Origin: Mayamaea pseudoterrestris
Taxonomy: Eukaryota
Length of the DNA stretch: 64,000 nucleotides
Assembly (NCBI GenBank): GCA_027923505.1
Contig: BROI01000005.1
Location: forward strand, 1,054,001-1,118,000
Direction: 5' to 3'
Positions 1,516 to 55,133 of this stretch are shown piece by piece. The notes beneath the pieces are model-generated. The model saw nothing but the letters and a program-made list of their open reading frames with translations. It ran no database searches and was not told the origin of the DNA. The translations under genes were made by a program, and so were the position numbers. The number at the start of each line of letters is the position of its first letter. Position 1 is the first letter of the stretch.

Positions 1516-3778
1516 ATGCTCTTTCGTATATCCGAGTCTTTGTTGCTCTTAAGCTTGTTAGTAAACAAGTCGGCTGGTTTTGTGGCGCTGCCAGTGCAGC
1601 AAGGACGATGCAACGCTGCACAAGCTCGTTCAGATCAGCAGCCATTCGTCACATTCTCAACACAAGTGTTTAATCAGCATTATAATCACGAAGACTCTGA
1701 AGAACAGAATGAGCTAGTCGATGATGCAAGCCAAGATTGGAGAGCATTTCGTGCCAAGCTCATTAACAGCGAACCAGAAATCTACAAGGAAGGTACCAGT
1801 CTCTCAGAGCGAGACACACCCAACCGCGACGCAGAGCAAATCTTTCACGACTGGCGATCATTCCGTGCCAAGCTTGTTCGAAGTGAGCCGCAAATGTACA
1901 AGGAAGATGGCCTTGATGAAGATATATATGATGACTGCGATCCAGCGACGGGTGACTGTGACTTAGATGGCATAGGAGAAGCATTCTTTGAAGATATTGC
2001 GATGAAAGCAGCCCTCCGAAACATGATGGAATCTTCAACGCATGCAGCATCGCCGACTACAGTAGAAACAACACCATTGACTCAATGGGATGCTTCCCAG
2101 TGGGCCTACGAGAGTGGAACAATCATTGAGCAAGGAACAGTTGTGTTGGGAGGTGTCGAACAAGAATTTGGATTTGCACTTCGACAACAATATTTTCACA
2201 AGTAAGCAGCAGCAGTCGGAGATTTCTTTTAATGATTCAATGCGACTCACTTACCTTGTTCTGTTCTTCGCGCGCAGGGCTGCAATTCTCGTCATTGATC
2301 ACCAAGAAACGACATTTACAAAGGGAATTATACTAAATCGACCGACTGATTTTATACTTGAAGACGACTTGAACCCAGGAGCTCGCTGGAAGCTTTGGTT
2401 TGGAGGCGATGTTCAAGGTATCGAGAGCGAAAACCCTGATTTGATATGCCTACACACCCTGACATCCCCACACGCCACCAGAGCTAGCATTCCCATAATG
2501 AACGACATGCAGTGGACGACCTTCGAAAATGCCAAACGACTTGTAAATGCAGGAGTGGCTCAACCTCAAGACTTTCAAGTGTTTTGTGGATATGCTGGAT
2601 GGGGCCCCACTCAGCTTCGAAATGAACTTGATCGCAAGTCTTGGTTCATGGTAGCAACAGACTCGCAAACATTAATCAAGGAACTGTCCTTAAATGCATC
2701 ATCGGATCCCCGCGATGCTGGACTTGAAACTTGGTCGATGCTTATGCGAATGATCGGTCGTGAGACCATGGCAACACAGAAGCAAGATTGCTTTGACGAT
2801 TTGATGCTGAAGGAATGGTCACTTCGACATCTTTTAAGCGTCGATAGTGGCGGAAATGCTGGTCAAAGGATGCGGAATGTTTCACGCGCACGCGCAAGCG
2901 TGCCTCGTTCATCGGACATTTCTATTAGCATCAAAGAAGAGTACCTGCGTAAGGATCCAGTAGAGGAAATGATGGCTCGAGCGTCCGCAGCGGCACAGGG
3001 TCAGGGAGTTATGCCAGGTCATCTTGTTCGAGCATCACCTGTTGGACGATCACCCTTTTTGCTTGACGACCAAGAGTTGCATAAGTCAGTCATTCTTATT
3101 TTGAGCGACGACGAGAAGCTCACAGTTGGCGCTATTCTCAATCGACCTGCTGCCAAAGGCGTCGACATTCAGATTTCGCGGCACAGCAGTGGCCGTGTGG
3201 AAACAATTACTATTCCGTTGCGGTTTGGCGGACAGTACTCGGTCAAGGGCGACGAACCGTTACTATGGGTACACTGCAATGCAAACCTTCGCGCCGCTGG
3301 TGTCGGTGAGCCTGTTGGCTCTGCAGACACTGGTATCTGGAAATGCACGGCCGACGATGTCGCCATTGCCATCCGCCAGGGGCTGGCGCTTGTGGAAGAT
3401 TTTTTTGTTGTCACAGGTGTCAGTGTTTGGACGAAAGAAAATTCTGCAGAACGAAATGGCATGCAAGGTGAGATTGAGTCTGGTCGATTCGAACTCATTC
3501 CTCCCTCCAGAACACGCGCCGTCTGGGACTCTATGTCGCAACAGGAGGTGCTTACTTCATCGAATGTCAAGGACAACCTTGCAGTGGCTGATGAAGCGTG
3601 GTCCCAAGGGATCGTCAACACTTACAACCCCTTGCCCGGTATCCAAGACCTCACTGGAAATGTCAGTCAAGAAGACACATTTGTTTTTAAAAGCAACGTT
3701 AAGGTTTCAAAGCTAGCAGATGATGCGCTCGAGAACTGGGTTGCTACGTTCCTCTTGGGAGTTCCAAGCCTTAATTGA
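1516..3778 (+). CDS. Plastid-targeted DUF179/YqgE(AlgH)-family protein with two DUF179 domains; exons 1516-2201, 2278-3778
   Basis: Signal peptide ending SAG-FVAL; two DWRxFRAKL motifs; QQYFHK|AAIL spliced across intron 2202-2277 (GTAAGC..CGCAG); GIILNRPT, FGGDV and GYAGWGPTQLRNE motifs; second domain with GAILNRP..FGG. Confidence 0.85.
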
Positions 3779-4957: not shown

Positions 4958-6712
4958 TTAAGCATCCTTGGAGACTCGCTTCTTTTCGACTTTGCGAAAG
5001 TGATTAATCAATGTATTTGCTGGCTTCGACGGCTTAGTAGCCTTTGCTCGCTTCGTCGCACTAGATTTTCTGAGCTTATCGCTCACCGCCGGGATGCGAC
5101 TGATCAGTTGTGATTTGTATGGAGCGGCAGATTCTTTTGCAGCAACTGCAAAGCATGCAGCAATCGATTTCTGTAGCTTGTGGGGCTGGGTTTTGCGCGT
5201 TGCAGCATCAGTCTGCAGAGTTAAATAAGGTGGCAAAATGGAATCATCCACCACTAACGAAACGGCAATATGATCCGAAAATGAAGGCGGCGTGTACACC
5301 ATGCCAGTGTGTGCTTTGCCAAACTGCGTGTCGAATGCATCGCGAGACATCTCCTGAATGCCGCCTCCTTGAAACGAAACTGGTTGGAATCTGCCGTTCG
5401 CGGTGGCAGCTTCTAAAGCTGCATGCTCGGCAATCGGATCATCTAGTGTAACACTTGCATCGCCGCATCGCAGAGATTCGACGTTGCCTTTCCGAATGAA
5501 AGGTAGCATATGCCGGTCAATGATTGTGTAGTCGATTCGTGACCCATCATTCGTGTATCGTCGATTGGTTGATTGATTCCAGCATGTAAATCGTCCTCCG
5601 GCATTTGGATAAAAGTAGCGAAAGGCGTCAACCATATTTCCATCATTCAGTAGAGTGCGCAACCATTGCCGAGGCGGCGAGACATTCGGCACAGTAGCGT
5701 GCGCTGATGCAATCTCGCGCAGGGTTTCATCGCTCCACTGCACGCCTGCTATTCGAGACATCAATTCGGCCAGAACATGCAAGCGCACAACATTTGCTTC
5801 CTGCGCCAATACATATTGCTGAAGTTCATCGTCAAAGTAGTAAGATTCTTCAAAGTTGAACAGGTATTCGCAACACTCCGGTGAACTTTCATGTTTTCCA
5901 AGGTAGACGCGGCGACCATTCACATCAACAGCAAGGCGGTATTTGTCAAACTGATCACCCGTATAAGTATTTGTCGTCTTTGTCGGCACAGCCCGCTTTG
6001 TGTAGAGTGCTGCAACTATCATTTGCCAATGCGTTTGAACGTCTCGCTTCCATTGTGATATCGGTGGTTGACTCAGCTCGTTTGTCGCTATCTCATTTTT
6101 TGACTGCAGTATAGAATCAATGTAGACGACACGATCTTTCCAGTAAACATCTTTACTATCCAAGGCAATATTCAGATCTCCAACGAGTATAACTGGTATT
6201 TTGCGCTCTTGCCGCTGTCGCTCCATTGCTCGCTGTAGAGCGCGAAGGAACTTCATCTTGTAGGCAAGGGGTAGACCGCCCGACGCAGGAACGTATACAT
6301 TAAAAAGTATGAAAGAGCCATGATCAGTCATGATGCATCGTCCTTGAGCGTCAATGTCGGGAGCAAGGGGCGCCGCATTGGCCCGAAGACATAATCCTTT
6401 GCGAACAAAAGTGACCACTCCGAAATTCATGGTCGCCGTCGACTCGGCGGGACAGCAAGCCCAAAAGGATTCGTAATTGTCGAGTGATGAGCACTGCCTT
6501 GGTTCGCTTCTATTCTTTAACTGAGTAAGTGGTACTTTGTGCTCTTGAAGGCAGACGATATCAGCTTGATGACGCTGGAAGAAGGCATCGATGGACGCTT
6601 GAGGACGCTGCTTAGTTTTAGCGCTTGCACAAATGGATGGAAGATCGCTTGACTCGCAAATGCGCTCCAGCGTCTTACTCAAGCCTGCAACGTTCCAGCT
6701 GAGAATGAGCAT
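4958..6712 (-). CDS. ExoIII-family AP endonuclease (APE2-like)
   Basis: ILSWNVAG, CLQEHK, NVYVP, GDLNIA, TCWNQ, GSRIDY and SDHIAV EEP motifs; PIP-box-like QKSIAACF in the C-terminal tail. Confidence 0.88.
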   Translation of the reverse strand: MLILSWNVAGLSKTLERICESSDLPSICASAKTKQRPQASIDAFFQRHQADIVCLQEHKVPLTQLKNRSEPRQCSSLDNYESFWACCPAESTATMNFGVVTFVRKGLCLRANAAPLAPDIDAQGRCIMTDHGSFILFNVYVPASGGLPLAYKMKFLRALQRAMERQRQERKIPVILVGDLNIALDSKDVYWKDRVVYIDSILQSKNEIATNELSQPPISQWKRDVQTHWQMIVAALYTKRAVPTKTTNTYTGDQFDKYRLAVDVNGRRVYLGKHESSPECCEYLFNFEESYYFDDELQQYVLAQEANVVRLHVLAELMSRIAGVQWSDETLREIASAHATVPNVSPPRQWLRTLLNDGNMVDAFRYFYPNAGGRFTCWNQSTNRRYTNDGSRIDYTIIDRHMLPFIRKGNVESLRCGDASVTLDDPIAEHAALEAATANGRFQPVSFQGGGIQEMSRDAFDTQFGKAHTGMVYTPPSFSDHIAVSLVVDDSILPPYLTLQTDAATRKTQPHKLQKSIAACFAVAAKESAAPYKSQLISRIPAVSDKLRKSSATKRAKATKPSKPANTLINHFRKVEKKRVSKDA

Positions 6713-7175: not shown

Positions 7176-9208
7176 ATGTCTCGCCGACGAGGTGAATTCG
7201 AGCATCGTACTTCCATCTTTGAAGGATCATATCGTGCCTGGAGTTTCTTGGGAGGCATCGATCCAGAGCATCTTTTCACCAAAACCTCGGAAGAATTGGA
7301 CCCGCTCTCTAATCCCATTGCCCCTGCGGACGACACTCGCGTCAAGAGCAACGCCACTTCTACCCAAGGACGACCGGAATATCCATACGAACCACTGCCT
7401 CGATCCGGATTGGCGCATCCATTCGTGCAAGCCATTCTCAGTCCATGGCTAGGACCAGACGCCGACCAGGATGCCATTACGCTTGGACTCACGACGCTTC
7501 GGACTTGGTGGCAGCACAGACGCAAGGGAGAATCGGGCAGTGCGATTGCTGCATTGAGCACCGAGAAGATGCAAGGAATTGTCGATGGATATACGCGACA
7601 TTTCTTCACGCTAGCGCACTGCCTCGTGATGAATGACAAGGAGCAACCACCGCGGACGCTGCATACCAAAATGAAAGCGCGTGAGAAGCAGCGACGCAAG
7701 GGCGGTGCAGGCGCAACGAGTGGTATTGCTGCCGCATTGGGTCTTGATAGCATGTCCGAGTCGGAGAGGAGTCGAAATTTGGAATTGTCGGGGTCGCAGT
7801 CACAATTGAACAATACGGAACTCACGCCATTGGAACGTCTTCATGCGGCCCAGCAAAAGCATTACAAGGAGTCGGAACAATTTGGTGAAGCGAGTATCGC
7901 GAGCTCATTTGTCTCTGCAAACATTAACTTGAAAGGGAAGTGCGTTCCCGGAAAAGTCGACTTGGGCAGCATGGTGGATAGTGTCAATCGCCATGCTGCT
8001 CAGCTTGCTCACCGTGGGAATGAGGTGTCATCAAGCGTCAACAGTCGAGGATTTTGCTTGCCGCCGGCGAATGATACTCACAATGCCATTGTGCAGTATG
8101 GAGATCCCCGCATGACGCCGATCGTCCTTTGTAATACGCAAGGCGACTGCCAAATAGCCATGTCGGTGGATGGAATTACATGCAGCCATTGCGTTCGCAT
8201 TGTGGAGACTGTATTAAAAGGTTGTAACGGCAACAGATCTCCAATCTCAGGTTTGCTGGATGCTGCTGCAGATCGCGCCATGAATAGTGTGATTATAAAG
8301 ATAGAGCGACCCGCTGACGCGAAACGAATTGCCTTTCAAGCAGCGAGAAATCTTGCCATGGTTGGCTACACGGCCAAGGCCCTGGAAGTCAAAATATCAG
8401 ACGAGAACGACCAACCTTTTGCGCAAGAAGCAATTTGCCAAGCCTTTCAAGCAGCTGCCAAGGGTGATGCCCCCGCAGTTTTTGACTGGGGAAGTTGCTG
8501 CAGCTGCCCTGATAATGGCGTCGAGCGACGAGACTGTCCCAGGTATGCCGTACGACGATGAATGCTCATTTGTGGCGAAAGGCACTTTAAGGTGTTTGAT
8601 GTTGCCCCAGTGGCATTGTCCCAAGCTTACCTCACAGCACGTTTTGCGTTATGATTTTTTTACACAGACACTCGCAGATGGAACCGACAATGTTAAATGC
8701 TTTTGTCGACCGGGGATTGCAAGTTGCTGCTTTTTTGAAAATGCCTGCAACCGCCAGGTCTATTGAGATATTCAAGGACCCGCTGTTACGTGTTCACGAC
8801 AAGCAAGCGACTACTGGTACTGTCCAGCCCATGAGTGGAGTAGGTTTGAGTCACATGGAAACTTTGGCGGTTGCTGCGGCTGGATCAGCCCACATGCCAT
8901 CATATGTCTCAGTTCCATCCGATCGCGAGGCGCTTCTTCGCCAATCATTTCCCAGAGCATCTTATTCTCGCCGCAATAGTCGGAACCCTTCCATTATGTC
9001 GTTTGGAAATGGATTTCATCAGGCTCCAATGGCGTCGGAAACAACGTTTGGTCGCGCCATGTCGGGTTTATCTGCATTATCAATTGATTGGGAAAACCTG
9101 GACGATTTTGATTTAGAAGTCGACCACAGTGCGCACATCAACAACCAAGGGCGAGCAAATGGAGGTGATGGGCAGAACGACAATGCAGCGCATGCCGTTG
9201 GAGTTTAG
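7176..9208 (+). CDS. Heavy-metal-associated (HMA) domain protein; exons 7176-8542, 8668-9208
   Basis: MSVDGITCSHCV HMA motif; Cys cluster CCSCPD..DCPRH; intron 8543-8667 (GTATGC..ACACAG) joins the two ORFs in frame. Confidence 0.75.
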
Positions 9209-22837: not shown

Positions 22838-23652
22838 AGTTTGCGTATCTAGCTTTGGCGTCAAAAAGGAAACCTTGCGAATGTCTCGCTATCCAAGTCA
22901 CTTTGGATGGACGCAGTAGAGTAAACGCGAAAATCCCGAAAACGTGAGTGCCGATACGATTTTTGCTACCTAAGAAACAACGACTACCGGTATGCAGCAC
23001 TACGGCAGAGCCCTCCATATTTGAAGCTATACTGGTATGACCGGGTAGAAAATATGTCAATCATTACTACTTATAAAGGTTCCTCATTGAATGTAGCCAT
23101 GGTCGCATAGCGTGGAGCATGTAGGGATGCCGCAAGCGCACTAATGCACGAGCATACGTCGACACAAAATAAATATCGTACCACAAATTGCGCCGTACTC
23201 TAAGGATGGGACATCACAGGTAAGCAAGGCGACGGGGTACGTCCGAGAGCGACTGATAACTATATCCCGATGATATCAATAATCGACCTGATGACTTTCA
23301 TGGCTTTGCCGGTAGAACCTTCAAAGCGGATATGACTGTGGTCTTGAGGCAGTGTCGCTATTTTACCGCAGAATCGATCTAATGCACGCTAGCATATGCT
23401 ACTACTGCACCTAATTGCATATTTGATGGTCATTGCGAGCCCACAGAGTGTGATGCGAGTTTGTGTAGCGCTGTTGCAGGAAAGTCATAAACGGCTTTTT
23501 ATTGCTGTCCCGGACCCTTTCGCAATACGCACGCTATGAATCTGTTAACGTACGCACACTCACTTTGGTAGTTCTATCATTCTTATCATCCTCTGGGGGA
23601 ATTCGTCGGTCATTGCGCGCTTAAAGCCGATCTGTCAGCTACTCGTAGTCCA

Positions 23653-23921
23653 TGTTGATACTCCACTTCTGGGTTCCTTATCCGGTATCCAAGGAAGCTG
23701 CACTGGCTCGGCTTCCACCTAAGTGAAGCCTCCACCGTTGCCCAGCACATGTGTTTTAGTTATGCCTCAGCGACAGGCGGTTAGATCAGCGAGCCAACCG
23801 AGGTTCCCACCGGTCACAAGTAGCAATAGAACTCGGCAGGCAGTGCGACAATTGCCGCTCATAATAAATTCACGTCAATCGTTTTGATCATTCCTAGTGT
23901 CTCCCCATAGAGGCATCAACA
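23653..23921 (+). repeat. 5' LTR (269 bp)
   Basis: TGTTGAT...ATCAACA; 4 mismatches against the 3' LTR. Confidence 0.97.
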
Positions 23922-24109
23922 GACGTGAATTAAACGATAATATCCGGCAAGTAACATCATTGACTCTTTCATTTAACAATCTAAAGAGCACTCACGTTAC
24001 CACCTTCGTCTTTTGCGTCCAGCGACTGAACGAATCGAGCCACCGCAGCTCTTCCCTCCGAGTGTGATCCTCCGCTCTTCCATCGCCTCCGTCGTCCCCT
24101 CAAGACACC

Positions 24110-25228
24110 ATGACGGAATCAAGCAGCACCAAGATCGTTTTTCCGCTAAAGACACTCTCTGTTCTTGGCTCTACCGGCACCATTACCTTCGATGAAGCGA
24201 TCCAGTTCGACAAGGAGCTCCTCCAAAATGCGCGCTCCGTCACCAGTCAATACGGCAACGGCGGCGTCGGCCACGTTCACTTGGTAGTCACACCAGCTGA
24301 GTACGCTCTACGCTCTGCGCAAGTTTATGCTCCTGTGGCCTTCCCGGTGCTCGACATTGCCGCAGGAGCTACTGGCGCCCAGATCGCCGAGGCCAACCGC
24401 GCGTTCAACGCCGCCCTCAGCGCTTTCAACAAGAACAACTTGGTCACCACGGCTCTGATTGCGCAAGTCGTCAAGGCGATTCCTTCCATCTATCTTCAGT
24501 CTTTGGAGGACCCCGCCACGGGAATGGAGGAAGTCACCATCCTTCAGCTTCGCCAGCACATCAAAGCTGAGTACGGCACCGCCACGCCGCAGCAAGTCGC
24601 GGCAAACTACGCCATGGCGAGCGACCCGTTCAACCTCAGCGAGCCAGTCGAAACGTACACTGGCAAGATGGAGCGCATTCGTCGCCTTGCAGCAGCAACC
24701 ACCAATCCGATGTCGGACGCCGCCTCCATCCGTTTCGACGTGGCCGCCATGGCTGCAACCGGCCAGTTCAAAGCCGACTTGCACGCGCGCGCCATTGAGC
24801 AACAGATCCCAGGACAAGCTGATGAAACGTGGCCAGCCTTCGTCTCTTGGCTCAAGCGTGTAGACAAAGCTCACCACCAGGAGAAGACTGTTGCAGATGC
24901 TGGATACTTGGCGCAGGCAAACTTTGCGTCCGCTGTCGCAGCTGCTGTCCGAGAGCAAATCGCTGCGACACACCGTGCGCCGGCAAATCCGCCGCCACCG
25001 CTGCCCAACAACAACAATCAGGGCAACAACGGCAACAACAACAACGGCAACAACGCTCCTCGCGTCAAGAAGTACTGTCATTCTCATGGCTACTGTGGAC
25101 ATACAAGCATGCAGTGCAACCGTCGCAGTCCAGGCCACCAAGAGGCAGCAACTAGTGCCAACAAGATGGGCGGCAACGAAACCAACTTCGTCTACCGCAA
25201 CCAACGCAGTCGCGCGCAAGGAGAATAG
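24110..25228 (+). CDS. gag: Retrotransposon Gag
   Basis: GGVGHVHLV motif; non-canonical zinc knuckle YCHSHGYCGHTSMQC; ends in TAG in frame with pol. Confidence 0.9.
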   Translation: MTESSSTKIVFPLKTLSVLGSTGTITFDEAIQFDKELLQNARSVTSQYGNGGVGHVHLVVTPAEYALRSAQVYAPVAFPVLDIAAGATGAQIAEANRAFNAALSAFNKNNLVTTALIAQVVKAIPSIYLQSLEDPATGMEEVTILQLRQHIKAEYGTATPQQVAANYAMASDPFNLSEPVETYTGKMERIRRLAAATTNPMSDAASIRFDVAAMAATGQFKADLHARAIEQQIPGQADETWPAFVSWLKRVDKAHHQEKTVADAGYLAQANFASAVAAAVREQIAATHRAPANPPPPLPNNNNQGNNGNNNNGNNAPRVKKYCHSHGYCGHTSMQCNRRSPGHQEAATSANKMGGNETNFVYRNQRSRAQGE

Positions 25229-28200
25229 GCCGGAGGGACGGCATCTACAAGTAGTTCATTTAATAAGCTTGAGTTAAATGAACTTGATGTCTCCTCCCCG
25301 CCTATATCTCTAGCCATAGCCGACACTGGATGTACTGGACACTACATCTCGTGCCAGTTGCCGTTCACCAACCGGCAACCCGCCAATCCCAGTCTTACCG
25401 TCCACGTTCCTAACGGAACAACAATGCATTCCACTCATACTGTTCAACTAGACCTTCCCGGTTGCTCCTAGGAGGCTTGCAAGGCGCACGTTTTCCCCGA
25501 AATGATGCAGTCACTAATCTCCATCCGCCAACTTTGTGACGACGGCTGCTCCACGCTATTTACCGACACTGCAGTCACTGTTACCAAAGGAGATAAAGTG
25601 ATCCTTGCAGGGACTCCCAGTACTGACACCAAGCTTTGGACCGTCAACATGCAGCGTCCTACTGGCAGCCCAGCAGCCAGCGTCAATTACGCACTCAACA
25701 TGTACCAACCGCTCAACACAGTGGCCGACCGCGTCGCCTACGTTAGCGCTTGTCTGGGTTACCCTACAGTCTCTACGCTTTGCAAGGCTTTGGACGCCGG
25801 GCGGCTTACTACTTTTCCTGCCATCACATCGGCCCAAGTCAAAGCTTTTCCGCCCCGCACTACCGCAACAGCAAAGGGTCACCTCGACCAGACGCGCAAG
25901 AACCACCGCAGCACCAAGCAAGCCAACTCAGTTACAGTCACCGCGGATGAGCTCGCCATTGATATGAACCCGCCGCCAAATGATCCGCCAACTCTTCGTT
26001 CCATGCGAGTTTACGCCAATTATACCAAAGCGACAGGCAAGATCCATTCCGATTTAACAGGACGATTCATGTTACCCTCCAGCTCTGGCAACACAGTCAT
26101 GCTTGTTGTCTATGATGAAGATAGCAACGCCATCCTAGTCGAACCAATGAAGAACAAGAGCGGCGCCAGCATCCTGGCGGCGTATACCAGGATCCACAAG
26201 TTGCTCTGCGCTCGTGGCCTTAAACCACAGCTCCAGCGCCTCGACAACGAAGCATCTAAAGCTCTTAAAGACTACATGGTCTCTGAATCAGTTGATTACC
26301 AACTTGCACCGCCTCATATACACCGTCGCAACGCTGCGGAGCGAGCCATTCGCACGTTCATCAACCATTTTACGGCGACTCTTTGCGGCACTGATCCCAA
26401 GTTTCCATTACACCTTTGGGACAAGCTGCTCCCACAATGCGTCTTATCTCTTAATCTGTTAAGAGGATCCAGAATCAATCCAAAGCTCTCGGCTCATGCT
26501 CAATTACATGGCACGTTTGATTTCAACAAGACGCCGCTCGCACCCGCTGGCACTCGAGTCATCATCCATGAAAAGCCAAGCATTCGCGCCTCACATACAC
26601 CTCATGGTGTAGATGGTTATTACCTTGGACCAGCGCTTGAACATTACCGCTGCTATTGCGTGTATGCAACCGACACAAATGCCGAACGCATTGCTGACAC
26701 CCTTGCCTGGTTTCCTACTCAGACAATCATGCCCGTCGCCTCCAACCAAGACCTTCTCATTGCAGCCATTAAAGACATGACAAGCGCTCTTCGCAATTGG
26801 ACCACCACAAGTGGTCCCGTCCCTGCCAGTGACGCTGGTCACATGGAGGAGTTACGGCGTGTTGCCGCGGCACTAGCCACTCAGGTTGGTGCACCTGCGC
26901 CTGCAACCGCCGACTCCGCCCCGCCTGCGCTCCAGGCTGACCCACCAAGCATCCCTGCAGATGTGGCCCCGTCGCCATTGCCTACTCAACCCGCTCCAGC
27001 TACAGAAGCGCCCACTGCACCAGCTCCCAGGGTGGCCAATGAGAACGCGAACGCGAGTGCGACAGCTCCCAGGGTGCCGGATGCGAACGCGAACGCACCT
27101 ACTGCGACCACCGATGCGACACCTCCCAGGGTGGCCGCGGCCGATCCTGTTGTCGACTCCACCATGGCGCCCACCGCCGCTCGCGTACGTTTTAACTTGG
27201 AAACTACATCAGAGGAGCCCTGGACGTGTGTCAGTCGCACGAAGAACCCTGCGCAGCGGCGCAGCCTGCAGAAGAAGGAGCAGGCCGCCCGCCTGGCCAA
27301 GCTCACGGCCAACGAAGGATCCAACTTCCGTCGTGCCAGCCCTTACAAGAGCACCAAAGCAACGACTTACCTCCCAGTGGGCATCACACAGGCTGCCTAC
27401 ACGGAAGCCAAGCGCGGCACCCGCAGCGCCCATGGCATCAGTCGCCCTTCCGCCAAAAAGCTTCAAGCCAACACGGTTACCGACCCAGTCACAGGCGCCG
27501 CGCTTGAATATCGCCATCTCATTGCAGGCCCAGATTCTGCCCAATGGGAACGCAGCATGGCCATGGAAATCGGTAGACTTGCTTAAGGGTGTGCCAAGCA
27601 TGACACTAAAGACACCAACACGATGCGACTCATCAGCCCCAATGATGTGCCGGCTGGCCGCAAAGTCACCTATCCTCGCGTCGTTGTTGCCATTAAACCT
27701 GACAAAGCTGAAAAGCAAAGAGTACGCATCATGGCAGGAGGTGACAAGCTTGACTACAATGATATCACCGCGGCCCCTTGCGCCGACATTCCCCTTGTTA
27801 AGCTCCTGTTGAACAGCGTGCTCTCCACCCCAGGAGCAAAATTCATGGCCGCTGACATTAGCAACTTTTACCTCGGTACACCAATGCCTGCAAAGGAGTA
27901 CATGAACATCCCCGTTCGCCTTCTTCCCAATTGCATTAAAGCAGAATACAACATTGCACAAATCGAACGCAAAGGCAACGTCGTAGCGGAACTCAGCAAC
28001 ACGATTTACGGACTCAAACAAGCTGGTTACCTTTCCTACTTGCGTCTCCGCAAACTGCTGTGCTCGAATGGCTACAATGACTCTGAGCATGTACCAGGAC
28101 TCTTTATACACAAGACCCGCCCAGTGGCATTTGCTCTAGTGGTGGACGATTTTGGCATCCGCTATGTGGGCGACGAGCACGGCGAGCACTTGCTCAATGT

Positions 28201-29266
28201 CCTCCGCTCGCAGTACACTATTACAGTTGATAAAACAGGTATCACACTTAAATGGGACTATGACAAACGGATTTTGGAAATGAGCATTCCCAACTACGTC
28301 GCCAACGCGCTCAACCGATTCCAGCACCCGTATCCGTCCAAACAACAAGATGCTCCTCATCCTTGGACGGCCCCCGTTTATGGCGCCAAACAACAGTTTG
28401 TTGATGAAGACTGCACTGATCCCCTTCCTCCAGAAGGCTGCGTTCGCGTTCAACAAGTTTGCGGCGTTTTCCTCTTCTATGGGCGAGCCATTGACAACAC
28501 CATGCTCACGCCCGTCAATGAACTCGGCGCTGCCCAGGCCAAAGGCACAAAGAAGACTGAAGCTGCAATGGTTCAATTCCTTGATTACGCCGCTTGTCAT
28601 CCAGACGTGATCCTCGTCTTCCATGCCAGTGATATGGTCCTTCATTGCCACACAGACGCCTCCTACTTGACGGCCGCCAAAGCACGCTCCCGCATCGCTG
28701 CTTTCCATTTCCTCAGCTCCATGCCCACGGACCCCTTGAAAGCACCATCGCCTGATGCTCCTCCTCCTCCTGAAAATGGAGCAATCCACGTTGGATGCGA
28801 GCTATTGAAATGCGTCGTCTCCTCCGCCGCCAAGGCGGAGCTAGGCGGCGCCTTCCATTGCGCCAAAGACGCCACCGTTTTCCGCACAGCACTTGAAGAG
28901 CTCGGCCATCCTCAACCGCCAACGCTCATTCAAACAGATAACAGCTGCGTGGCAGGCATCGCCAATGGCACCGTCAAACACAAGCGCTCGAAAGCAATGG
29001 ACATGCGTTTCTACTGGATCAAGGATCGCATTGCTCAGGGCCAATTCATTCTCCATTGGCGCCGCGGTTGCGACAATTTAGCGGATTACTTTACCAAGCA
29101 CCATCCTGCAGTTCACCACCGCAAGATGCGCTCCCATTACGTAAAGGATCCTCCCAAGGCAACAGTCTCTCCCGAGACACCTTCCTTGCCAGGGTGTGTT
29201 GATACTCCACTTCCGGGTTCCTTATCCGGTATCCAAGGAAGCTGCACTGGCTCGGCTTCCACCTAA
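25229..29266 (+). pseudogene. pol: Retrotransposon Pol (PR-IN-RT-RNase H), one reading frame with two internal stops
   Basis: PR IADTGCT; IN HSDLTG..RLDNE..NAAERAI; RT ADISNFY, YGLKQAG, LVVDDF; RH HTDAS, QTDN, NLADYFTK; in-frame TAG 25469-25471 and TAA 27584-27586. Confidence 0.9.
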
Positions 29267-29465
29267 GTGAAGCCTCCACCGTTGCCCCGCACATGTGTTT
29301 TAGTTATGCCTCAGCGACAGGCGGTTAGATCAGCGAGCCAACCGAGGTTCCCACCGGTCACAAGTAGCGATAGAACTCGGCAGGCAGTGCGACAATTGCC
29401 GCTCATAATAAATTCACGTCAATCGTTTTGATCATTCCTAGTGTCTCCCCATAGAGGCATCGACA
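29197..29465 (+). repeat. 3' LTR (269 bp)
   Basis: TGTTGAT...ATCGACA followed by TSD GTCCA; the pol stop codon lies inside it. Confidence 0.97.
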
Positions 29466-29794
29466 GTCCATCCTGCTGAACTGCTGAAGGGTGGCTGAGG
29501 CTAAGCATAATCGGCCGAAATTTTGGAGTGGACCTGTTAGCGACGTCGGGTGCAGATATTTGCACAACGCATTCTCTTTACAGAATGTACTTGTATCCGA
29601 TTTGCCTGCCTTTAGCTGATAGGACGGTAAACAATTGTGCTACGGCGAGAATAAGATGAGTCATGCAAAACCGATGCGACACAATACCGCATCTGGTCAT
29701 CAACATCAACTGCTCGACGATCTTTTATTCTCTCACATTGATTCGTCGTTCGAAACTCTATTCTCCTGCGCTAAAGGCATTGTTCGCGTTCACA

Positions 29795-48251: not shown

Positions 48252-51200
48252 TGGTGAGAAGTTCTCACCAGTCTCAGCCCGCAGATGCCATGACATTCAG
48301 ACACACCTACAGCAAGCCCGATAGGTGCCCAAATTACACCAGAATGGTGCCACCATCATTATTCAAGCTGCGCTACAAGATGGTAGGCTTGGCTGGTGTC
48401 TCAGGGGATGGCAATGTATTTGGCTATAACTTGTCACCAGTCTCAGCCCGCAGATGCCATGACATTCAGACACACCTACAGCAGGCCCAGTAGGTGCCCA
48501 AATTACAGCAGAATGATGCCAACGTCATTATTCAGGCCGCGCTACAAGATGGTTTGCCTGGCTGGTGTCTCAGGGGATGGCAATGTATTTGGTGACAACT
48601 TGACACCAGTCTCAGCCTGCAGATGCCATGACATTCAAACACACCTACAGCAGGCCCTGTAGGTGCCCAAACTACACCAGAATGGTGCCAACATCACAAT
48701 TCAAACTGCGCTACAAGATGGTAGGCTTGGCTGGTGTCTCAGGGGATGGCAATGTATTTGGTGACAACTTGTCACCAGTCTCAGCCTGCAGATGCCATGA
48801 CATTCAGACACACCTACAGCATGCCCGGTAGGTGCCCAAACTACACCAGAATGGTGCCAACATCCTTATTAAGGCTGCGCTACAAGATGGTATGTCGCGC
48901 TGGTGTCTCAGGGGATGGCAATGTATTTGGTGACAACTTGTCACCAGTCTCAGCCCGCAGATGCCATGACATTCAAACGCCCCTACAGCAAGCCCTGTAG
49001 GTGCCCAAACTACACCAGAATGGTGCCAACATCATTATTCAGGCCGCGCTACAAGATGGTATGCCTGGCTGGTGTCTCAGGGGATGGCAATGTATTTGGT
49101 GACAACTTGTCACCAGTCTCAGCCTGCAGATGCCATGACATTCAGACACACCTACAGCATGCCCTGTAGGTGCCCAAATTACACCAGAATGTTGACAACA
49201 TCCTTATTCAGGCTGCGCTACAAGATGGTTGACTTGGCTGGTGTCTCAGGGGATGGCAATGTATTTGGTGACAACTTGTCACCAGTCTCAGCCTGCAGAT
49301 GCCATGACATTCAGACACACCTGCAGCAGGCCCGGCAGGTGCCCAAATTACACCAGAATGATGTCAACATCATTACTCAGGCTGCGCTACAAGATGGTAG
49401 GCTTGGCTGGTGTCTCAGGGGATGGCAATGTATTTGGTGACAACTTGTCACCAGTCTCAGCCTGCAGATGCCGTGACATTCAAACACACCTACAGCAAGC
49501 CCTGTAGGTGCCCAAAATACACCAGAACGGTGCCAACATTATTATTAAGGCTGCGCTATAAGATGGTAGGCTTGGCTGGTGTCTCAGGGGATGGTAATGT
49601 ATTTGGTGACAACTTGTCACTAGTCTCAGCCTGCAGATGCCGTGACATTCAAACGCCCCTACAACAAGCCCTGTAGGTGCCCAAACTACACCAGAATGGT
49701 GCCAACATCATAATTCAAACTGCGCTAGAAGATGGTAGGCTTGGCTTGTGTCTTAGGGGATGGCACTGTATTTGGTGACAACTTGTCACCAGTCTCAGCC
49801 TGCAGATGCCATGACATTCAGACACACCTACAGCATGCCCGGTAGGTGCCCAAATTACACCAGAATGTTGCCAACATCCTTATTCAGGCTGCGCTACAAG
49901 ATGGTTGACTTGGCTGATGTCTCAGGGGATGGCAATGTATTTGGTGACAACTTGTCACCAGTCTCAGCCTGCAGATGCCATGACATTCAGACACACCTGC
50001 AGCAGGCCCGGCAGGTGCCCAAATTACACCAGAATGATGCCAACATAATTACTCAGGCTGCGCTACAAGATGGTAGGCTTGGCTGGTGTCTCAGGGGATG
50101 GCAATGTATTTGGTGACAACTTGTCACCAGTCTCAGCCTGCAGATGCCGTGACATTCAAACACACCTTCAGCAGGCCCGGCAGGTGCCCAGATTACACCA
50201 GAATGGTGCCAACATCATAATTCAAACTGCGCTAGAAGATGGTAGGCTTGGCTTGTGTCTTAGGGGATGGCAATGTATTTGGTGACAACTTGTCACCAGT
50301 CTCAGCCTGCAGATGCCATGACACTCAGACACACCTACAGCAAGCCCTGTAGGTGCCCAAAAACACCAGATCGGTGCCAACATCCTTATTCAGGCTGCGC
50401 TACAAGTCGGTAGGCTTGGCTGGTGTCTCAGGAGATGGTAATGTATTTGGTGACAACTTGTCACTAGTCTCAGCCTGCAGATGCCCTGACATTCAAACGC
50501 CCCTACAGCAAGCCCTGTAGGTGCCCAAACTACACCAGAATGGTGCCAACATCCTTATTCAGGCTGCGCTACAAGATGGTTGACTTGGCTGGTGTTGTAT
50601 TTGGTGACAACTTGTCACCAGCTGCAGATGCCATAACATTCAAACACACCTACAGCAAGCCCTGTAGGTGCCCAAAATACACCAGAATGATGCCAACATC
50701 ATTATGCAGGCTGCGCTACAAGATGGTAGGCTTGACTGGTGTCTCAGGGGATGGCAATGTATTTGGTGACAACTTGTCACCAGTCTCAGCCCGCAGATGC
50801 CATGACATTCAGACACACCTACAGCAAGCCCTGTAGGTACCCAAATTACACCAGAATGGTGCCAACATTATTATTAAGGCTGCGCTATAAGATGGTAGGC
50901 TTGGCTGGTGTCTCAGGGGATAGTAATGTATTTGGTGACAACTTGTCACTAGTCTCAGCCTGCAGATGCTGTGACATTCAAACGCCCCTACAACAAGCCC
51001 TGTAGGTGCCCAAACTACACCAGAATGGTGCCAACATCATAATTCAAACTGCGCTAGAAGATGGTAGGCTTGGCTTGTGTCTTAGGGGATGGCAATGTAT
51101 TTGGTGACAACTTGTCACCAGTCTCAGCCTGCAGATGCCATGACATTCAGACACACCTACAGCATGCCCGGTAGGTGCCCAAATTACACCAGAATGGTGC

Positions 51201-54200
51201 CAACATCCTTATTCAGGCTGCGCTACAAGATGGTTGACTTGGCTGGTGTCTCAGGGGATGGCAATGTATTTGGTGACAACTTGTCACCAGTCTCAGCCTG
51301 CAGATGCCGTGACATTCAAACACACCTACAGCAAGCCCTGTAGGTGCCCAAAAACACCAGATCGGTGCCAACATTATAACTTAGGCTGCGCTACAAGATG
51401 GTAGGCTTGGCTGGTGTCTCAGGGGATGGCAATGTATTTGGTGACAACTTGTCACCAGTCTCAACCCGCAGATGCCATGACATTCAGACACACCTACAGC
51501 AGGCCCTGTAGGTGCCCAAATTACACCAGAATGGTGCCAACATCCTTATTCAGGCTGCGCTACAAGATGGTTGACTTGGCTGGTGTCTCAGGGGATGGCA
51601 ATGTATTTGGTGACAACTTGTCACCAGTCTCAGCCCGCAGATGCCATGACATTCAGACACACCTACAGCAGGCCCTGTAGGTGCCCAAATTATGGTGAGA
51701 AGTTCTCACCAGTCTCAGCCCGCAGATGCCATGACATTCAGACACACCTACAGCAAGCCCGATAGGTGCCCAAATTACACCAGAATGGTGCCACCATCAT
51801 TATTCAAGCTGCGCTACAAGATGGTAGGCTTGGCTGGTGTCTCAGGGGATGGCAATGTATTTGGCTATAACTTGTCACCAGTCTCAGCCCGCAGATGCCA
51901 TGACATTCAGACACACCTACAGCAGGCCCAGTAGGTGCCCAAATTACAGCAGAATGATGCCAACGTCATTATTCAGGCCGCGCTACAAGATGGTTTGCCT
52001 GGCTGGTGTCTCAGGGGATGGCAATGTATTTGGTGACAACTTGACACCAGTCTCAGCCTGCAGATGCCATGACATTCAAACACACCTACAGCAGGCCCTG
52101 TAGGTGCCCAAACTACACCAGAATGGTGCCAACATCACAATTCAAACTGCGCTACAAGATGGTAGGCTTGGCTGGTGTCTCAGGGGATGGCAATGTATTT
52201 GGTGACAACTTGTCACCAGTCTCAGCCTGCAGATGCCATGACATTCAGACACACCTACAGCATGCCCGGTAGGTGCCCAAACTACACCAGAATGGTGCCA
52301 ACATCCTTATTAAGGCTGCGCTACAAGATGGTATGTCGCGCTGGTGTCTCAGGGGATGGCAATGTATTTGGTGACAACTTGTCACCAGTCTCAGCCCGCA
52401 GATGCCATGACATTCAAACGCCCCTACAGCAAGCCCTGTAGGTGCCCAAACTACACCAGAATGGTGCCAACATCATTATTCAGGCCGCGCTACAAGATGG
52501 TATGCCTGGCTGGTGTCTCAGGGGATGGCAATGTATTTGGTGACAACTTGTCACCAGTCTCAGCCTGCAGATGCCATGACATTCAGACACACCTACAGCA
52601 TGCCCTGTAGGTGCCCAAATTACACCAGAATGTTGACAACATCCTTATTCAGGCTGCGCTACAAGATGGTTGACTTGGCTGGTGTCTCAGGGGATGGCAA
52701 TGTATTTGGTGACAACTTGTCACCAGTCTCAGCCTGCAGATGCCATGACATTCAGACACACCTGCAGCAGGCCCGGCAGGTGCCCAAATTACACCAGAAT
52801 GATGTCAACATCATTACTCAGGCTGCGCTACAAGATGGTAGGCTTGGCTGGTGTCTCAGGGGATGGCAATGTATTTGGTGACAACTTGTCACCAGTCTCA
52901 GCCTGCAGATGCCGTGACATTCAAACACACCTACAGCAAGCCCTGTAGGTGCCCAAAATACACCAGAACGGTGCCAACATTATTATTAAGGCTGCGCTAT
53001 AAGATGGTAGGCTTGGCTGGTGTCTCAGGGGATGGTAATGTATTTGGTGACAACTTGTCACTAGTCTCAGCCTGCAGATGCCGTGACATTCAAACGCCCC
53101 TACAACAAGCCCTGTAGGTGCCCAAACTACACCAGAATGGTGCCAACATCATAATTCAAACTGCGCTAGAAGATGGTAGGCTTGGCTTGTGTCTTAGGGG
53201 ATGGCACTGTATTTGGTGACAACTTGTCACCAGTCTCAGCCTGCAGATGCCATGACATTCAGACACACCTACAGCATGCCCGGTAGGTGCCCAAATTACA
53301 CCAGAATGTTGCCAACATCCTTATTCAGGCTGCGCTACAAGATGGTTGACTTGGCTGATGTCTCAGGGGATGGCAATGTATTTGGTGACAACTTGTCACC
53401 AGTCTCAGCCTGCAGATGCCATGACATTCAGACACACCTGCAGCAGGCCCGGCAGGTGCCCAAATTACACCAGAATGATGCCAACATAATTACTCAGGCT
53501 GCGCTACAAGATGGTAGGCTTGGCTGGTGTCTCAGGGGATGGCAATGTATTTGGTGACAACTTGTCACCAGTCTCAGCCTGCAGATGCCGTGACATTCAA
53601 ACACACCTTCAGCAGGCCCGGCAGGTGCCCAGATTACACCAGAATGGTGCCAACATCATAATTCAAACTGCGCTAGAAGATGGTAGGCTTGGCTTGTGTC
53701 TTAGGGGATGGCAATGTATTTGGTGACAACTTGTCACCAGTCTCAGCCTGCAGATGCCATGACACTCAGACACACCTACAGCAAGCCCTGTAGGTGCCCA
53801 AAAACACCAGATCGGTGCCAACATCCTTATTCAGGCTGCGCTACAAGTCGGTAGGCTTGGCTGGTGTCTCAGGAGATGGTAATGTATTTGGTGACAACTT
53901 GTCACTAGTCTCAGCCTGCAGATGCCCTGACATTCAAACGCCCCTACAGCAAGCCCTGTAGGTGCCCAAACTACACCAGAATGGTGCCAACATCCTTATT
54001 CAGGCTGCGCTACAAGATGGTTGACTTGGCTGGTGTTGTATTTGGTGACAACTTGTCACCAGCTGCAGATGCCATAACATTCAAACACACCTACAGCAAG
54101 CCCTGTAGGTGCCCAAAATACACCAGAATGATGCCAACATCATTATGCAGGCTGCGCTACAAGATGGTAGGCTTGACTGGTGTCTCAGGGGATGGCAATG

Positions 54201-55133
54201 TATTTGGTGACAACTTGTCACCAGTCTCAGCCCGCAGATGCCATGACATTCAGACACACCTACAGCAAGCCCTGTAGGTACCCAAATTACACCAGAATGG
54301 TGCCAACATTATTATTAAGGCTGCGCTATAAGATGGTAGGCTTGGCTGGTGTCTCAGGGGATAGTAATGTATTTGGTGACAACTTGTCACTAGTCTCAGC
54401 CTGCAGATGCTGTGACATTCAAACGCCCCTACAACAAGCCCTGTAGGTGCCCAAACTACACCAGAATGGTGCCAACATCATAATTCAAACTGCGCTAGAA
54501 GATGGTAGGCTTGGCTTGTGTCTTAGGGGATGGCAATGTATTTGGTGACAACTTGTCACCAGTCTCAGCCTGCAGATGCCATGACATTCAGACACACCTA
54601 CAGCATGCCCGGTAGGTGCCCAAATTACACCAGAATGGTGCCAACATCCTTATTCAGGCTGCGCTACAAGATGGTTGACTTGGCTGGTGTCTCAGGGGAT
54701 GGCAATGTATTTGGTGACAACTTGTCACCAGTCTCAGCCTGCAGATGCCGTGACATTCAAACACACCTACAGCAAGCCCTGTAGGTGCCCAAAAACACCA
54801 GATCGGTGCCAACATTATAACTTAGGCTGCGCTACAAGATGGTAGGCTTGGCTGGTGTCTCAGGGGATGGCAATGTATTTGGTGACAACTTGTCACCAGT
54901 CTCAACCCGCAGATGCCATGACATTCAGACACACCTACAGCAGGCCCTGTAGGTGCCCAAATTACACCAGAATGGTGCCAACATCCTTATTCAGGCTGCG
55001 CTACAAGATGGTTGACTTGGCTGGTGTCTCAGGGGATGGCAATGTATTTGGTGACAACTTGTCACCAGTCTCAGCCCGCAGATGCCATGACATTCAGACA
55101 CACCTACAGCAGGCCCTGTAGGTGCCCAAATTA
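48252..55133. repeat. Satellite A: 169-bp tandem monomers arranged as two 3441-bp higher-order units (48252-51692, 51693-55133)
   Basis: Consensus TGGTGACAACTTGTCACCAGTCTCAGCCTGCAG..GGCAATGTATT is 169 nt; identical ORF translations recur at +3441 (48396/51837, 50540/53981, 51414/54855). Confidence 0.97.

Follow-up and report, generated by a model that had tools for sequence, protein, structure and literature searches.

The window, by which we mean the whole analysed stretch of 64,000 nucleotides, contains a single full-length LTR retrotransposon, located on the + strand at positions 23653-29465. The element is bounded by two 269-bp direct repeats, the 5′ LTR (23653-23921, TGTTGA...TCAACA) and the 3′ LTR (29197-29465), which have TG..CA ends and differ from each other at 4 positions per 269 bp (98.5% identity). 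A five-base target-site duplication, GTCCA, flanks the element on the left (23648-23652) and on the right (29466-29470). In four public runs, all from one study, there are contigs whose loose ends fall exactly at 23653 and 23922, consistent with these LTR limits. Those that are loose at 23653 read on into the sequence preceding the 3′ LTR, which shows that several copies of the element's family are present in the organism of the sequenced runs.

The conserved AGGGTG that adjoins the 3′ LTR (29191-29196, + strand) is the plus-strand primer site, and RGGGTG followed directly by TGTTGA is kept in 69 related LTR starts. This site is accompanied by a stem: CTTCCTTG (29181-29188), just 5′ of the conserved AGGGTG-TGTTGA, pairs with CAAGGAAG (29234-29241), 45 nt downstream and inside the LTR. 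A comparable stem of at least 7 bp was found in 23 of the 69 related LTR starts, as compared with 3/69 in a control moved 30 nt upstream, and the stem sequences vary from locus to locus.

The coding region, also on the + strand, begins with a gag ORF of 372 a.a. (24110-25228), which has a Cys/His knuckle near its end and was matched to the gag regions of relatives by tblastn. It is followed in the same frame by the part of pol with a DTG protease motif and a presumed integrase (25229-27586), and then by a copia-type reverse transcriptase (RT) and RNase H (27587-29266), whose ORF enters the 3′ LTR. The gag-pol frame contains stops at 25226-25228 (the end of gag), 25469-25471 and 27584-27586. 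The last of these, at the integrase/RT junction, is a sense codon in 25/25 relatives and falls inside a conserved EIGRLAQG-like stretch. Since in-frame stops interrupt pol, the window copy is probably no longer autonomous; judging from the 98.5% identity of its LTRs, it is young, yet probably defective.

Several observations point to a Ty1/copia-type element. The window RT scored 31.2 bits against the Pfam family RVT_2, just below the cut-off (gathering score) of 31.6, and it has more than 2,000 metagenome homologues at about 45-55% identity, many of which carry PF07727. The nearest ESM Atlas clusters are named as Ty1/copia-type RT and are eukaryotic, and their commonest phylum is Bacillariophyta, with the phylum known for only 3-4 members of each cluster. 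The order of domains (gag, DTG protease motif, middle ORF, RT/RNase H) ends without anything after RNase H, so the layout is copia-like and not gypsy-like. In the window copy, Pfam gave no match to the middle ORF, and the middle ORFs of relatives gave weak, sub-threshold signals for SH3_retrovirus (E 1.5e-5), rve and DDE_3. A profile of the middle ORF found no meaningful relative among solved structures, and the AlphaFold model was poor (pLDDT 46); the order of strands and helices at residues 177-345 and a beta-rich segment at 362-409 are only suggestive of an integrase. In the presumed integrase (25472-27583) and the homologous ORFs of relatives, the final ~250 residues are proline/alanine-rich and predicted to be disordered.

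We then turn to the junction between the 5′ LTR and the site where reverse transcription would be primed. As the sequence-only reading had claimed, the ten bases that begin at base 1 after the LTR (GACGTGAATT, 23922-23931, + strand) do not start with TGG but are the exact reverse complement of a stretch within the LTR (AATTCACGTC, 23867-23876, + strand), and both sets of coordinates proved exact. The 10-mer is present only three times in the 64-kb window, once in each LTR and once, in reverse orientation, at the primer site. G23922, the neighbour of the LTR's last A, is the partner of C23876, which agrees with the earlier placement of C23876 opposite the base adjoining the LTR end. Since A23877 faces A23921, the helix ends at the LTR end. 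The predicted fold of the RNA from 23861 to 23945 includes this helix, which closes a 45-nt loop (−19.3 kcal/mol, z = −4.18, matched by 0/200 shuffles). Of the 5,243 interior positions of the element, only 3 carry a 10-mer whose complement lies in the 269 nt before it. Among the 40 listed of 75 differences in the run contigs, none falls in either arm.

The sequence-only reading had also pointed to a second complement of 7 nt, AAACGAT (23932-23938, + strand), which matches ATCGTTT (23878-23884). The match is present in the window but finds no support as a conserved structure, because a second match of more than 5 nt occurs in 1/43 related junctions, that of the window alone. In addition, the segments follow one another in the crossing order A-B...A′-B′ with no spacer on one side, so the 7-nt complement cannot stack on the 10-bp helix, and the two helices formed together would be a pseudoknot. 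We therefore treat it as a chance match or as private to the family of the window element.

ARAGORN found no tRNA in the window and none in 80 related loci (described below). Rfam reported nothing at the gathering score in the window, and two chance-level matches (E 2.4 and 4.8) in 23600-24150.

To obtain relatives, the RT was aligned with 23 homologues and metagenome contigs were scanned, which yielded 80 loci with RTs about 41-60% identical. Every region of at most 400 nt upstream of a gag match was taken, 37 in all; after removal of one that was too short and one indexing artefact, 35 regions remained, including the window. When these 35 unbiased regions were searched for exact inverted repeats with loops of 20-90 nt, the longest one (9-15 nt) was the LTR/primer-site junction in 28: the 3′ arm begins at base 1 after the conserved LTR end (TCAACA, TCAATA and the like), and the 5′ arm lies 21-61 nt upstream, within the LTR. 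Loss of the complementarity in relatives had been named beforehand as evidence against self-priming; instead, it was kept exactly in these 28 and imperfectly in six more (L004, L009, L020, L024, L047 and L062), which have 1-2 mismatches at the junction as judged by eye. In L051, the upstream region stops short of the primer site, and the junction is seen after its 3′-side LTR. That the LTR ends where the arm starts was established by comparison of the 5′ and 3′ LTRs in the window and in L028, in which the repeat 1-126 equals 5314-5439, the arm starts from 127 and the 3′ copy continues into unrelated sequence. L041 agrees with this position after a 5-nt BLAST overrun is discounted.

These counts bear on the alternative of a chance inverted repeat or a local rearrangement without function. 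A complement of at least 10 nt from base 1 after the LTR arose in 8 of 20,000 dinucleotide shuffles of the LTR, and a lone 10-mer match such as that in the window is thus to be expected by chance at roughly 4 in 10,000. Against this explanation, the repeat recurs at the same junction with differing sequences in 28/35 unbiased regions, and inverted repeats of at least 11 nt occurred in 23/35 regions as compared with 0/266 coding control windows (400 nt, from the same loci) and 1/145 shuffles. We consider it extremely improbable.

Two further observations were made on these contigs. Many metagenome contigs of ~5.4-5.9 kb begin and end with the same 64-127 nt and show the order RT, one LTR, gag (for example L008, L011, L013, L016, L020, L030, L040, L042 and L061); such contigs are either one-LTR circles or assemblies in which the two LTRs of an element have collapsed into one. 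L069 carries a second repeat-flanked unit of 5.9 kb beside its copia-type RT, with 209-bp repeats at 2988-3196 and 8718-8926. These repeats have no TG start and no CA end, and the self-complementary junction is absent.

Covariation between the primer-binding site (PBS) and the LTR had been suggested as a check on the self-priming idea, and the relatives do covary, as seen consistently in counts of individual pairs and in an RNAalifold analysis. Across all of the loci and the window, 39 exact junctions were found, with 33 distinct 9-mers that differ on average at 4.9 of the 9 positions. Their duplexes measure 9-15 bp, most commonly 12 (20 of the 39; 10 in the window), and their loops 21-61 nt. 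Pairs 1-9 are paired owing to the selection of the junctions, so that any percentage of pairing is inflated there and the unbiased figure is the 28/35 given above. At the unselected pairs 10, 11 and 12, Watson-Crick pairs occur in 35, 35 and 31 of the 39 (79-90%), falling to 11/39 at pair 13 and to 10-28% over pairs 13-18. For RNAalifold, 42 junctions were aligned with MAFFT, including four imperfect ones and leaving out L067 and L009 (near-duplicates) and L020. The program returned the same 12-bp helix alone, with compensatory double changes at 12/12 pairs. In this alignment 89.2% of the cells were paired (subject to the selection at pairs 1-9), as compared with 56.9% in shuffles, 0/500 of which reached the observed value, and 31-36% when the partner was slid by 1-3 columns. 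The covariation score was 0.721; shuffles gave 0.151, and the slid partner no more than 0.128. A covariance model built from this alignment and run over 400,618 bases gave 46 full-length matches (E at most 0.0014), every one on the sense strand; eight of them lay outside the training set and had 10-11 of the 12 pairs, and the sole match in the window was 23855-23939.

The first base of the primer site is G in 36/39 relatives and the remainder is variable. That the primer site varies and tracks the LTR of its own element speaks against a tRNA primer common to all and agrees with self-priming of the type known from Tf1, and the reading of a tRNA-independent, self-priming copia element is supported by the comparative test on relatives. 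A tRNA fragment that matches the window element alone is argued against indirectly, through the variable, LTR-tracking sites of its relatives. G:U pairs fill only 6/500 cells of the 42-junction alignment, and their near absence suggests that the complementarity is kept by copying and not solely by selection on RNA shape.

The same data speak to the explanation that the hairpin is a signal for packaging, dimerisation, translation control or nuclear export, while another cellular RNA, such as an internal tRNA fragment, acts as the primer. Such a primer has precedents, since copia-type elements that use half tRNAs and have primer sites without a TGG start are known (PMC6317226). A cellular primer, however, would hold the primer sites constant, and they differ from locus to locus, with 33 distinct 9-mers among 39 junctions, each matching its own LTR. 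Moreover, the helix starts exactly at base 1 after the LTR in 38 of the 39 junctions, and the G:U pairs that are usual in RNA stems under selection are nearly missing. We regard this explanation as very unlikely.

The helix is also bounded on its inner side. The LTR ends in A in 39/39 junctions, and the position following the 5′ arm holds A in 30 of them, C in 7 and G in 1. These two bases cannot pair in 38/39, where the helix stops at the LTR boundary. Upstream of the 5′ arm stands a conserved CTCATAA (23858-23864, + strand), a candidate initiator that may form the 5′ edge of the self-primer. Among the 42 junctions, C23860, A23861, T23862 and A23864 are at least 90% conserved, and in 39/43 junctions the arm's 3′ end follows the A of the motif at a distance of 15-18 nt (mode 16). 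No conserved motif was found among related junctions in the 50 nt upstream of CTCATAA. Given this lack of upstream conservation, CTCATAA fits an initiator-type start in a TATA-less promoter; alternatively, it could be a TATA-like box. No contig has a poly(A) end, and none starts at the CTCATAA motif. As a separate matter, AATAAA (23863-23868) was considered as a poly(A) signal of the family and rejected as private to the window copy, because other copies in two runs (X1 and X2) lack one A at 23866 and the relatives carry CTCATAAT(T/A) at the same place.

Drosophila copia and Ty5 are primed by half tRNAs, and half-tRNA-primed copia elements use the anticodon-loop region of methionine tRNA. CTCATAA appears to be identical in its seven letters to the anticodon loop of that tRNA, and its flanks in the 42 related junctions and the window do not resemble an anticodon stem. 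The likeness may be fortuitous, or may go back to a half-tRNA primer used in the past.

Taken together, we propose that the element is of the Ty1/copia type and, like Tf1, uses a segment of its own RNA and not a tRNA to prime reverse transcription, a reading to which we assign a probability of about 0.78. Transcription would start in the 5′ LTR at or just past CTCATAA, between about 23861 (the A of the motif) and 23867, as suggested by the spacing of the conserved sequences. The 5′ end of the RNA would then fold back over the 45-nt loop, such that 23867-23876 pairs with 23922-23931. By analogy with Tf1 and from the geometry of the helix, the RNase H of the element would cut after C23876, because the first templated base must be the last A of the LTR (23921), and this cut would free a priming 3′-OH. 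RT would extend the 3′-OH through 23921 to 23877, yielding a very short minus-strand strong-stop DNA, which would subsequently jump to the 3′ R. In retroviruses, plus-strand strong-stop synthesis copies the end of the tRNA. Here, the corresponding step may copy the RNA primer, and each cycle would thereby restore the primer site from the LTR arm, which would explain both the joint changes of the two arms and the strict Watson-Crick pairing.

The short space left for R and U5 is a weak point of the self-priming reading. With the arm at the 5′ end of the RNA, only 21-61 nt are left for the rest of R and U5 (45 nt in the window, 23877-23921, the presumed template of the minus-strand strong-stop DNA), and the R available for the first jump would be very short. 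Tf1 requires a U5-IR stem-loop between primer and primer site. The minimum-energy fold of the window RNA has two small hairpins within the 45-nt loop, and RNAalifold found no consensus for a U5-IR-like stem in the loop with either 42 or 18 sequences.

The length of R and U5 is also one of the points in favour of a different arrangement, in which the arm belongs to U3, CTCATAA is TATA-like and transcription starts downstream. The arm would then exist near the 3′ end of the RNA alone, and the complementarity would mediate a 3′-5′ or intermolecular contact (circularising or dimerising) or provide a primer from a second RNA. CTCATAA is A/T-rich with no other conserved promoter motif upstream, a start 25-30 nt past it would land in the loop, and R and U5 would otherwise be very short. 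On the other hand, cutting the 3′ copy would leave the template without R and without its poly(A) tail, and the distance of 21-61 nt from the arm to the primer site is ideal for a local fold-back. We judge the arrangement with the arm in U3 to be rather unlikely.

Among known systems, self-priming has been demonstrated by experiment for Tf1, whose superfamily is so far the only one in which it has been shown, and the Tf1/sushi group is predicted to use it. In Tf1, according to PMC7175516, the RNA's initial 11 bases pair with the primer site, and RNase H makes its cut between bases 11 and 12. Like Tf1/Tf2 of Schizosaccharomyces pombe, the window element has no tRNA-type primer site, and the bases after its LTR pair with a stretch of the LTR. 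The complementary stretch of Tf1 is the start of the RNA, whereas here the position of the RNA start is predicted from the sequence. The duplex has 11 bp in Tf1, as compared with a mode of 12 in the relatives and 10 in the window. In both Tf1 and the window element the priming 3′ end lies opposite the base adjoining the LTR end, with the cleavage that would create it being a predicted one here. Window-type elements further differ from Tf1 in the 21-61 nt loop, in the CTCATAA before the arm and in the lack of a consensus U5-IR-like stem. Phylogenetically, Tf1/sushi elements are Ty3/gypsy chromoviruses, whereas the window element has a copia-type RT (RVT_2) with the presumed integrase upstream of it. 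The gypsy order, with integrase after RT/RNase H, is not seen, as RT/RNase H is the last part of pol in the window and runs into the 3′ LTR.

Within Ty1/copia, PMC6317226 describes predicted self-priming for the plant TAR lineage, including Houba and Osr-1, as well as for the plant Tcn1 chromoviruses. TAR thus shares with the window element a Ty1/copia-type organisation without a tRNA primer site, its self-priming likewise being an in silico prediction (PMC6317226). TAR is a plant lineage, whereas the nearest Atlas clusters of the window clade lean to diatoms. The half-tRNA-primed plant copia elements Osser, Bryco and Bianca, as given in the same source (PMC6317226), also have a primer site without a TGG start. 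Their site is complementary to the interior of a conserved tRNA and hence constant within a lineage, whereas the site here is variable and follows its own LTR, which indirectly makes half-tRNA priming of the window element unlikely.

Fungal GalEa copia elements share a major copia branch with the diatom CoDi-like elements and have no primer site but a "Conserved Hairpin Site" in its place (PMC5445492). The GalEa site is a 9-bp palindrome that includes the last A of the LTR, followed by a downstream hairpin, and the authors of PMC5445492 found no complement in the LTR. The window site falls outside this definition, being non-palindromic with its partner inside the LTR.

In the open-access full texts searched, we found no report of primer sites or of self-priming in diatom CoDi elements. 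The paper that named CoDi (PMC2774666) contains neither "PBS" nor "primer binding" and does not discuss the start of reverse transcription. In PMC2806351, "PBS" occurs as the name of a buffer only and the start of reverse transcription is likewise not discussed. Self-priming in copia elements is not new as an idea, having already been predicted for the TAR lineage (PMC6317226). What appears to be new here is a further, diatom-type copia clade as a predicted self-primer, with unusually clear covariation.

Beyond the window element, we lean towards the view that self-priming is normal throughout the diatom-type copia clade commonly met in environmental DNA. Its origin there would be independent of Tf1/sushi and TAR, with ~12 paired bases in the first ~16 of the RNA, CTCATAA as the initiator, and a primer site rewritten in each cycle. 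If the self-priming reading is true, elements of this type would not depend on host tRNA, and control by tRNA fragments directed at primer sites would not reach them. The reading would also predict a fixed transcription start and supply an annotation rule for the 5′ end, in which the LTR end is followed by the complement of those bases that lie about 16 nt past CTCATAA. The known or predicted self-primers would gain a third lineage, phylogenetically distant from the others, which bears on the idea, put forward in PMC3601003, that hairpin priming is ancestral for LTR elements. Copia-type elements are reported to be the main, stress-activated transposons of diatom genomes (PMC2806351), and the covarying arms offer a ready compensatory-mutation test in a transformable diatom.

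Elsewhere in the window, a satellite at 48252-55133 consists of about 41 copies of 169-bp units with about 90% matches. Its block 48252-51692 is repeated at 51693-55133, and the identical TRF scores of both blocks point to a higher-order duplication of about 3.4 kb.
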